From: a virus
Taxonomy: Duplodnaviria; Heunggongvirae; Uroviricota; Caudoviricetes
DNA: 54,688 nucleotides
Reading direction: 5' to 3' (one strand)
IMG/VR virus record: IMGVR_UViG_2541047774_000008
Location: 1-54,688 of that record
Every line of letters starts with the position of its first letter. Within the stretch, counting starts at the first letter, position 1. A program made the translations under genes and the position numbers. Positions 20,868-22,529 of this stretch are shown here, one piece after another. The notes beneath the pieces were generated by a model, which saw only the letters and a list, made by a program, of their open reading frames with translations, was not told where the DNA came from and made no database searches.

Positions 20868-22529
20868 TTACACACCATCAAACGTCGCAAGCCGCTCTTT
20901 GTGGCTGTCGCTCATATCGAATGCAAATTCCTCATGCTCTGCCTGGAATGTGCCAAACGCCATCAGCGCCGCAACGCTCGGGTCTATCTTGTTGGATGAT
21001 TTTTTCTTGTTCGGCTTGATATTGGCGTTCGCGTCACTCTGCATCACAACATTACTCATTGACCAGGCCAGCACCGGATCACCACGATGCACAATCACCT
21101 TCCGGTTAACAAAAACTTCGAACGATTTCGCCGCCGGACTGAAACGAAGGTACGTTTGCGGGAACGGCTCCACCTCAAATCCCGCCCCCTGTAGCTGTGT
21201 TCTCAGGTGAGTGGCGTTCCATGTATCGAAGCCCACCAGCCTGATACTGAAATTCTCTGCATCCACCATGATGTCATCACGGATACGGTCATAATCAATG
21301 CAGTCACCCGGTGTTGTGCGTATCCAGCCCGCCTTTACCCACTGGCGATAAATGGCGCGGTTTTTATTGGCGGGGTTCTGTAACTGAAATTCCGGCAGAT
21401 AGTGACGGGAAACCAGCATAATCTTTTTACCGACCGGAAAGGCATAGCACACGCTGGAAATATCGCTGGTTGATGATAAGTCCAGCCCCACGTAGCACTC
21501 CTGCCCGTATAAATCCGCCTCCGCGAACGTTCCGGCGCACTCCGCCCATGCACCGTTACCCATCCACGGCGTAGCCCCCTGACACCAGATATTGAATCGC
21601 TTGGTGAGCATTTCCACCCACTGCGACGGAATACCCCGCGCTTTCTGGATGGTTGAGGCCAGTTTTTCACGATCGACGGAAACATCGATATTGGGATTCG
21701 CCTTTATCCACATCGCCGGATCGTCAACCTCGCTTTCATCATCCAGCTCGTAAATCAGTACGAACATGGATTCGTTCACCTCTTCACCATCCAGTATCTG
21801 GCAGCAATAGTCGTAGTGTTGTTTACAGGCTGAAACAACGTTGCTCCCCGATGTGGTGATGGCAAATAATAACCCCTCCGGACGCGCCCCCATTCCCAGT
21901 TCAAGCGCGGAATAAACCCCGTTGTCAGGGTGCAGGTGATATTCATCTACAATGGCAAGACTCGGGTTTGTACCTTCAATGGTTGCCGCTTTTGCTGCCA
22001 GTGGCTTTAACAGGCTGTTGGTTTTCGGGTGTATCACCTTGTGTGCCTGAATATTTACCCGCTTTCGTAACGGTCGGGATAAAAGGCACATCTGACGCGC
22101 ATCATCAAACACGATCCGCGCCTGATCACGACTCACGGCGGCGGTGTAAATATCCTGCTGCCCGTTTTCCATAACCAGAAACCAGTTAGCCAGGATAGCG
22201 GCGACCGTGGATTTGGCATTTTTTCGCGGTACTTCAATGAATGCGCTGGTGTATTTGCGCCGTCCGGTGGCCTTAACCTTAAAGCCCAGGATGCACGCAA
22301 AGGCGAACTGCTGCCACGGCTCCAGCTCAATGGGGCTACCACGCATTGCGCCTTTTACGTGCGGACACACCCTGGAAAAGGCAATAAACCGCTCCACGAC
22401 CTCCGGTTCGAACGTGTAAAGGGGGTTTTCAAGGTCATAAAAATACCGTTTAACGGCCTGTTTCAGTCGTTTACAGGCCGTAATTTTGCCGTTTTTTACG
22501 CCTTCTGCGTACTCATGCCAGGCGGTCAA
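20868..22529 (-). CDS. terminase large subunit (island copy, intact)
   Basis: 553 aa with Walker A-like EVPRKNAKST, Walker B-like LAIVDEYH and a C-terminal nuclease domain. Confidence 0.9.
   Translation of the reverse strand: MTAWHEYAEGVKNGKITACKRLKQAVKRYFYDLENPLYTFEPEVVERFIAFSRVCPHVKGAMRGSPIELEPWQQFAFACILGFKVKATGRRKYTSAFIEVPRKNAKSTVAAILANWFLVMENGQQDIYTAAVSRDQARIVFDDARQMCLLSRPLRKRVNIQAHKVIHPKTNSLLKPLAAKAATIEGTNPSLAIVDEYHLHPDNGVYSALELGMGARPEGLLFAITTSGSNVVSACKQHYDYCCQILDGEEVNESMFVLIYELDDESEVDDPAMWIKANPNIDVSVDREKLASTIQKARGIPSQWVEMLTKRFNIWCQGATPWMGNGAWAECAGTFAEADLYGQECYVGLDLSSTSDISSVCYAFPVGKKIMLVSRHYLPEFQLQNPANKNRAIYRQWVKAGWIRTTPGDCIDYDRIRDDIMVDAENFSIRLVGFDTWNATHLRTQLQGAGFEVEPFPQTYLRFSPAAKSFEVFVNRKVIVHRGDPVLAWSMSNVVMQSDANANIKPNKKKSSNKIDPSVAALMAFGTFQAEHEEFAFDMSDSHKERLATFDGV

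Follow-up and report, generated by a model that had tools for sequence, protein, structure and literature searches.

When a satellite is inserted in the large terminase gene (terL) of its helper prophage and also carries a terL of its own, does the corresponding site in its own gene bear marks of protection against self-integration? The question is raised by a stretch of 54,688 nucleotides (the window), in which an island interrupts a prophage terL at the heptamer TTACCAA, while the island's own terL has TCACCAA at the homologous codons. A sequence-only reading of the window had proposed that this single mismatch could protect the island from integrating into its own terminase gene, or that it could be due to chance. 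The second part of this proposal is favoured here, in the extended form of chance together with shared ancestry and protein constraint, and the first part is unsupported, there being no sign of selection. Paralogy, constraint on the protein and an allele that is shared by many islands account for the heptamer with a probability of about 85%.

The island, its junctions and the heptamer in its own terL

The genes of the window that are relevant here are all on the minus strand, and the features on which the argument depends are the following.

20349..35312 (-), island, a helper-embedded PICI, capsid-forming by its gene content, 14,964 bp
35313..36340 (-), 5' part of the helper prophage terL, first 343 codons, core included
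19612..20341 (-), 3' part of the helper prophage terL, followed by the portal, head and tail genes of the prophage
35313..35319 (-), attL core TTACCAA, within the F-T-K codons of the interrupted prophage terL
20342..20348 (-), attR core TTACCAA
33918..35177 (-), tyrosine integrase gene (int), Arm-DNA-bind_3 and Phage_integrase domains (Pfam)
33377..33685 (-), AlpA-family regulator, probable excisionase
20424..20443 (-), doubled motif TGTATTGCGCTGTGTATTGC, P arm, upstream of the core
35162..35181 (-), doubled motif TGTATTGCACTGTGTATTGC, P' arm, downstream of the core
20868..22529 (-), the island's own terL, 553 aa, TerL_ATPase and TerL_nuclease domains
21600..21608 (-), codons L308-T309-K310 of the island terL, CTC ACC AAG = CTCACCAAG, in frame
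21601-21607 (-), heptamer TCACCAA, one mismatch (position 2) to TTACCAA
34741..34747 (+), perfect TTACCAA inside the island int, inverted relative to the att cores

Upstream of the island, from about 39.8 kb downward, the prophage has a lysis cassette, an HNH endonuclease gene, a P27-type terS (36340-36822) and the 5' part of terL. In the island the gene order is int, alpA, Bro-N, RepA-like helicase, SSB, capsid (of HK97 type according to Pfam and the ORF map), protease, portal, connector, HNH, terS and terL.

The heptamer TTACCAA is the sole block common to both junctions, and the bases on either side of it differ at both flanks. When the prophage pieces 36340..35313 and 20341..19612 are joined at this heptamer, a 1758-nt ORF results, which agrees from end to end, at 100% identity, with the intact terL of E. 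coli ZYS9073; intact one-piece copies of this helper terL are present in 910 E. coli records. That TTACCAA in the prophage terL is the integration target, as the sequence-only reading had it, is borne out both by the junctions and by the gene that is restored. The prophage motif at the core, which had been given as L-T-K, is in fact F-T-K (TTT ACC AAA).

In the island's own terL, the reverse complement of positions 21598-21611 is ATGCTCACCAAGCG, as had been read, and coordinates and reading frame together confirm that codons L308-T309-K310 contain TCACCAA with one mismatch to the core. The two sites are homologous, since BLASTP pairs VEMLTKRFNIW of the island protein with VNFFTKHMNVW of the prophage protein without a gap, in an alignment where island TerL and helper TerL have 32% amino acid identity overall. 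The nucleotide identity of the two terL genes is 58% around the site and 46% gene-wide, which places the site at the 82nd percentile; local identity around the heptamer is unremarkable.

The attP of the island is marked by the doubled motif tgTGTATTGCantgTGTATTGCa, of which there are two perfect copies, one on each side of the attP centre, with about 0.03 expected by chance. The nearest ends of the two copies are about 79 bp upstream and about 135 bp downstream of the core centre; the published distances of this signature attP motif of HE-PICIs are 81 and 132 bp (±2) from the attP centre (Tommasini, Mageeney and Williams, NAR Genom Bioinform 2023, PMC10111431). If attP were to recombine with the site in the island's own terL, the gene would lose its 3' end, the two sites being 1.26 kb apart in direct orientation, and that such an event carries a cost is conceivable.

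Some further features of the window were observed along the way. Between Bro-N and the replication genes of the island, at 30.8-32.7 kb, there is only a long and implausible TTG-start ORF (31355-32596), in a zone where relatives have small YlcI/YnfO and Icd-like genes. A search of the island with Rfam at gathering thresholds found neither a C4 nor an isrK immunity RNA. An oppositely oriented ORF of 161 aa (37774-38259, plus strand), which is probably a moron gene, separates the lysis genes of the prophage from its HNH/terS/terL block; in one relative (L088) a GNAT N-acetyltransferase is annotated upstream of the prophage HNH gene. With Rfam the window also gives matches to a sok antitoxin RNA, to DicF and to tRNA genes, four of which form a cluster in the prophage; listed together, the positions are 44192-44367 (-), 49231-49282 (+), 40321-40627 (-) and 53711-53797 (-). 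The one tRNA outside the cluster, near the end of the window, may mark the prophage's own attachment site.

What the protein motif and chance predict

The heptamer spans bases 2 and 3 of a hydrophobic codon, the whole Thr codon and the first two bases of the Lys codon. A hydrophobic-Thr-Lys motif then leaves freedom only at two wobble bases, the other five positions (T, A, C, A and A, as in xT. AC. AA) being determined. With five of seven bases determined in this way, a copy with one mismatch is a common outcome for any homologue. For an L-T-K motif written with the codon usage of the island, a perfect heptamer is expected with a frequency of 0.06, one mismatch with a frequency of 0.40 and two mismatches with a frequency of 0.55.

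The outcome among natural genes was read from 80 species-level TerL homologues, each from a different species and with 69-92% amino acid identity. Islands embedded in terL were sought among these 80 species-representative loci and none was found, and the set, having no member from a terL-embedded context, was used as a control. The protein block EM[L/M]TKRFN is invariant in all 80 but is written in 25 synonymous codon versions, so that the match to TTACCAA is perfect in 4 homologues, has one mismatch in 54 and two mismatches in 22; TCACCAA itself accounts for 10 of the 54.

In the island as a whole, there are 41 heptamers with one mismatch to the core when about 40 are expected, and six of these are within its own terL. 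The heptamer alone is tolerated inside the island and is evidently no hazard there, because a perfect TTACCAA sits inside int. The near-match in the island's own terL does not exceed what homology predicts.

Distribution of the codon block and the case for selection

To be weighed against this is the explanation that the mismatch is a selected self-immunity, where the wobble C of Leu308 is kept since a perfect core would recombine with attP, either deleting the 3' end of terL or giving disrupted dimers. This explanation is unlikely. A mismatch is expected in about 95% of cases without any selection and a perfect heptamer is tolerated in int, both of which speak against it; the remaining evidence concerns how the base is distributed among islands and how much the identity of the heptamer matters to the integrase.

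The comparison took in ten E. coli relatives, all of them inserted in a prophage terL and nine of them complete. The core is TCACGAA at both junctions in four of them and TTACCAA at both junctions in five, while the tenth (L090) has TTACCAA at attL and no attR. The 39-nt block CAGTGGGTGGAAATG CTCACCAAG CGATTCAATATCTGG of the island's own terL is present in all ten relatives, with a single left-flank change at one locus, and a change of island core from TTACCAA to TCACGAA leaves the base in question unaltered. The identical block, in all its 39 nt, is found also in four E. coli islands at yifB (two loci), hpt and fis; relative to the window island, their integrases have 39-48% and their TerL proteins 98.5-98.9% amino acid identity. 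The mismatch is therefore neither specific to terL-targeting islands nor enriched in them, since the block is common to both core types and to other sites, and because it recurs in yifB, hpt, fis and TCACGAA-core islands, the wobble base is a property of a widely shared TerL allele and not of islands that target terL. That the same base occurs in an identical context in islands with unrelated integrases speaks against selected self-immunity, and so does its constancy when the core switches.

The same distribution appears in larger collections. Of 5,426 E. coli genomes, 164 contain the exact own-terL 35-mer, at 187 places in all, and only 21 + 12 have an attR of a terL-embedded island (TTACCAA in 21, TCACGAA in 12). 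In IMG/VR the block is present in 13 of the 14 terL-embedded islands that could be read at this position, and the remaining one has ATGACAAAG, two mismatches from TTACCAA. Four embedded islands in Arsenophonus nasoniae prophage contigs of IMG/VR (L112-L115) have a 15-bp att identity block AATTTTATAACAAAG with the heptamer TAACAAA; these are members of the same site group, and the homologous codons of their own terL read TTAACCAAA, which is one mismatch from the core heptamer.

The pairs of core and own-terL heptamer that have been seen are, accordingly, TTACCAA/TCACCAA, TCACGAA/TCACCAA, TAACAAA/TAACCAA (Arsenophonus) and TTACCAA/TGACAAA. As the sequence-only reading had suggested, related islands were examined for an own-terL heptamer that matches the core perfectly, and such a match occurs in 0 of these 4 independent combinations of core and allele, that is, in no terL-embedded island examined. 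Selection for avoidance predicts this absence too, but the absence carries no weight, because with only four combinations and a chance of about 5% each it is expected with about 81% probability when there is no selection. Similarly, the own-terL 35-mer with a perfect core, CTTACCAAG, is absent from both classes of island throughout the 5,426 E. coli genomes, and this is uninformative about selection, because the islands that do not target terL are also without such a variant.

One relative stands out by its arrangement. In L090 (E. coli Z1324SEC0014, NZ_CM135183.1 1139026-1159515) a normal attL with TTACCAA is present and no attR follows terL, while the genome has an attR with TCACGAA on its opposite strand, at a distance of about 0.9 Mb; this arrangement suggests an inversion between two embedded islands.

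In favour of selected self-immunity is that identity between the partner heptamers looks enforced. The attL heptamer equals the attR heptamer in all loci read, that is, in 9 of 9 complete relatives and in the window. Published att identities of site group A:Terminase_1:246, counted for 60 entries, are ttaccaa in 44, tcacgaa in 12 and aattttataacaaag in 4, with 0 hybrids. The identity of the heptamer thus probably matters for this integrase.

In lambda-type tyrosine integrases the overlap region must match between the recombining partners, and tyrosine integrases make rare off-target insertions at sites with poor overlap identity. When the relatives L081-L084 are compared with L085-L089, the cores TTACCAA and TCACGAA differ at exactly the two wobble positions while the integrases are 99-100% identical; the integrase of the window island has this same 99-100% amino acid identity to those of other terL-embedded islands, irrespective of whether their core is TTACCAA or TCACGAA. 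By analogy with the lambda-type enzymes, we infer that core variation under a nearly constant integrase would be that of a classic overlap, where the partners must match each other and the enzyme does not read the sequence.

The barrier set by the heptamer is not absolute, because the core has switched in evolution and because an off-target island, Eco2384 near yeaN, is integrated at an attB with only 3/7 overlap bases in common (PMC10111431 supplement). Against selected self-immunity, this insertion shows that flanks, and not the heptamer alone, decide the use of a site. To the right of this attB stands GAATATT, which in comparison with window 20349-20360 is exactly the reverse complement of AATATTC, the left flank of attP, and AATATTC/GAATATT is therefore a candidate core-type half-site for Int. 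The flanks of the own-terL site match this putative half-site at 4/7 and 2/7 positions, and those of the true attB at 5/7 and 3/7. The idea that the flanks alone exclude the own-terL site was rejected, the difference being too small and the half-site too speculative.

Also in line with selected self-immunity is that no natural junction between a P' arm and an island-type terL is seen in the 5,426 E. coli genomes, where a chimeric query, with the left flank of the own-terL site joined to the island P' arm, found no place with at least 80% query coverage. An attR with the core TCACCAA, identical to the own-terL heptamer, was likewise not found in the search, which has no statistical power on this point since only 4 intact helper targets carry TCACCAA, compared with roughly 826 (mostly TTACCAA) and 61 with TCACGAA. 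For the capsid-gene satellite 11capE (capE), the same kind of argument has been published, namely that differences at the corresponding site 'would likely prevent self-integration' (PMC10111431).

The occurrence of the base in islands that do not target terL could be reconciled with selection by the fact that late-gene modules move between islands, so that a selected allele could reach them as well. The scenario in which selection against recombination of attP with the own-terL site maintains the synonymous C at Leu308, and module exchange then spreads the allele, is quite improbable. If selection were nevertheless the true reading, a single wobble base would be a built-in discrimination of 'self versus helper'.

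Very improbable indeed is that the heptamer is a decayed attB, left when the island captured its terL from a helper prophage of the targeted family: the heptamer does lie at exactly the homologous codon, and HE-PICIs are reported to capture runs of helper late genes (PMC10111431), but island TerL is only 32% identical to helper TerL, its clade extends at 69-92% identity over Enterobacterales, Pasteurellaceae and Orbaceae, where the contexts lack this integrase, and the flanks are no more similar than conservation of the protein explains.

The preferred reading is, instead, one of paralogy, protein constraint and a shared allele, all three of which are shown by the data. TCACCAA in the island terL is the paralogous copy of the codon block that is targeted in the helper terL, and its likeness to the core follows from the hydrophobic-Thr-Lys motif that both TerL proteins keep at this place. 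The C in CTC belongs to a TerL allele that is common to many capsid-forming PICIs of E. coli, independently of where they are integrated, and has not co-evolved with the att core of the island. By the overlap-identity rule of tyrosine integrases, a single mismatch together with differing flanks probably makes the site a poor substrate, and self-integration would then be avoided passively, without a selected change. A protective effect of the mismatch is plausible on this analogy, and the mismatch may well lower recombination, with no sign of selection for its doing so. By itself, the mismatch in the heptamer matters little.

Relation to known satellites and integrases

Judged by its sequence, the element is an HE-PICI of site group A:Terminase_1:246 (PMC10111431), and no structural differences from that group are seen in the window island. 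It has in common with the group the insertion into prophage terL at the same codon, the att identity ttaccaa (with variants tcacgaa and aattttataacaaag), a P' arm of about 100 nt and a P arm that both agree without difference with the attL and attR sequences in the paper, a doubled TGTATTGC motif in either arm, and the position of int beside attL, followed by alpA and co-oriented with the interrupted late gene. Its integrase belongs to the HE-PICI clade by Pfam domains and by its near-identity to the integrases of terL-embedded islands, and it has 99.8% identity to the integrase of Eco8512, a published island (CP027447) that is L081 among the relatives compared here.

A satellite with its own terminase inside the terminase gene of its helper was thus already published in 2023, in a paper where the own-terL heptamer of the satellite is not discussed. 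What the present analysis adds to it is that the core difference in the terL site group is a single wobble base, without sign of selection.

In gene content the island would also be a capsid-forming PICI (cf-PICI, prototype EcCIEDL933), as seen in Pfam, the ORF map and the RefSeq annotation of near-identical islands: it is an island of about 15 kb with int, alpA and a replication module, its own HK97-type capsid, protease, portal, connector, HNH, TerS and TerL, and no tail or lysis genes. The difference is in location, since for cf-PICIs six chromosomal attB sites are described and sites never occupied by prophages are required (Alqurainy et al., bioRxiv 10.1101/2022.09.08.507074), whereas the window island is placed inside a prophage terL. 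The cf-PICI-like islands at the chromosomal sites yifB, hpt and fis have near-identical late modules and share their TerL allele with the window island.

With lambda-type tyrosine integrases, finally, whose overlap-homology rule is cited in PMC10111431 (its ref. 34), the system shares a 7-bp identity block between attP and attB and a core that co-varies in both partners (TTACCAA, TCACGAA, TAACAAA). These natural core variants, two of which occur in E. coli with integrases that are 99-100% identical, form together with the rare TCACCAA target a compact test bed for overlap mismatch in this integrase clade.
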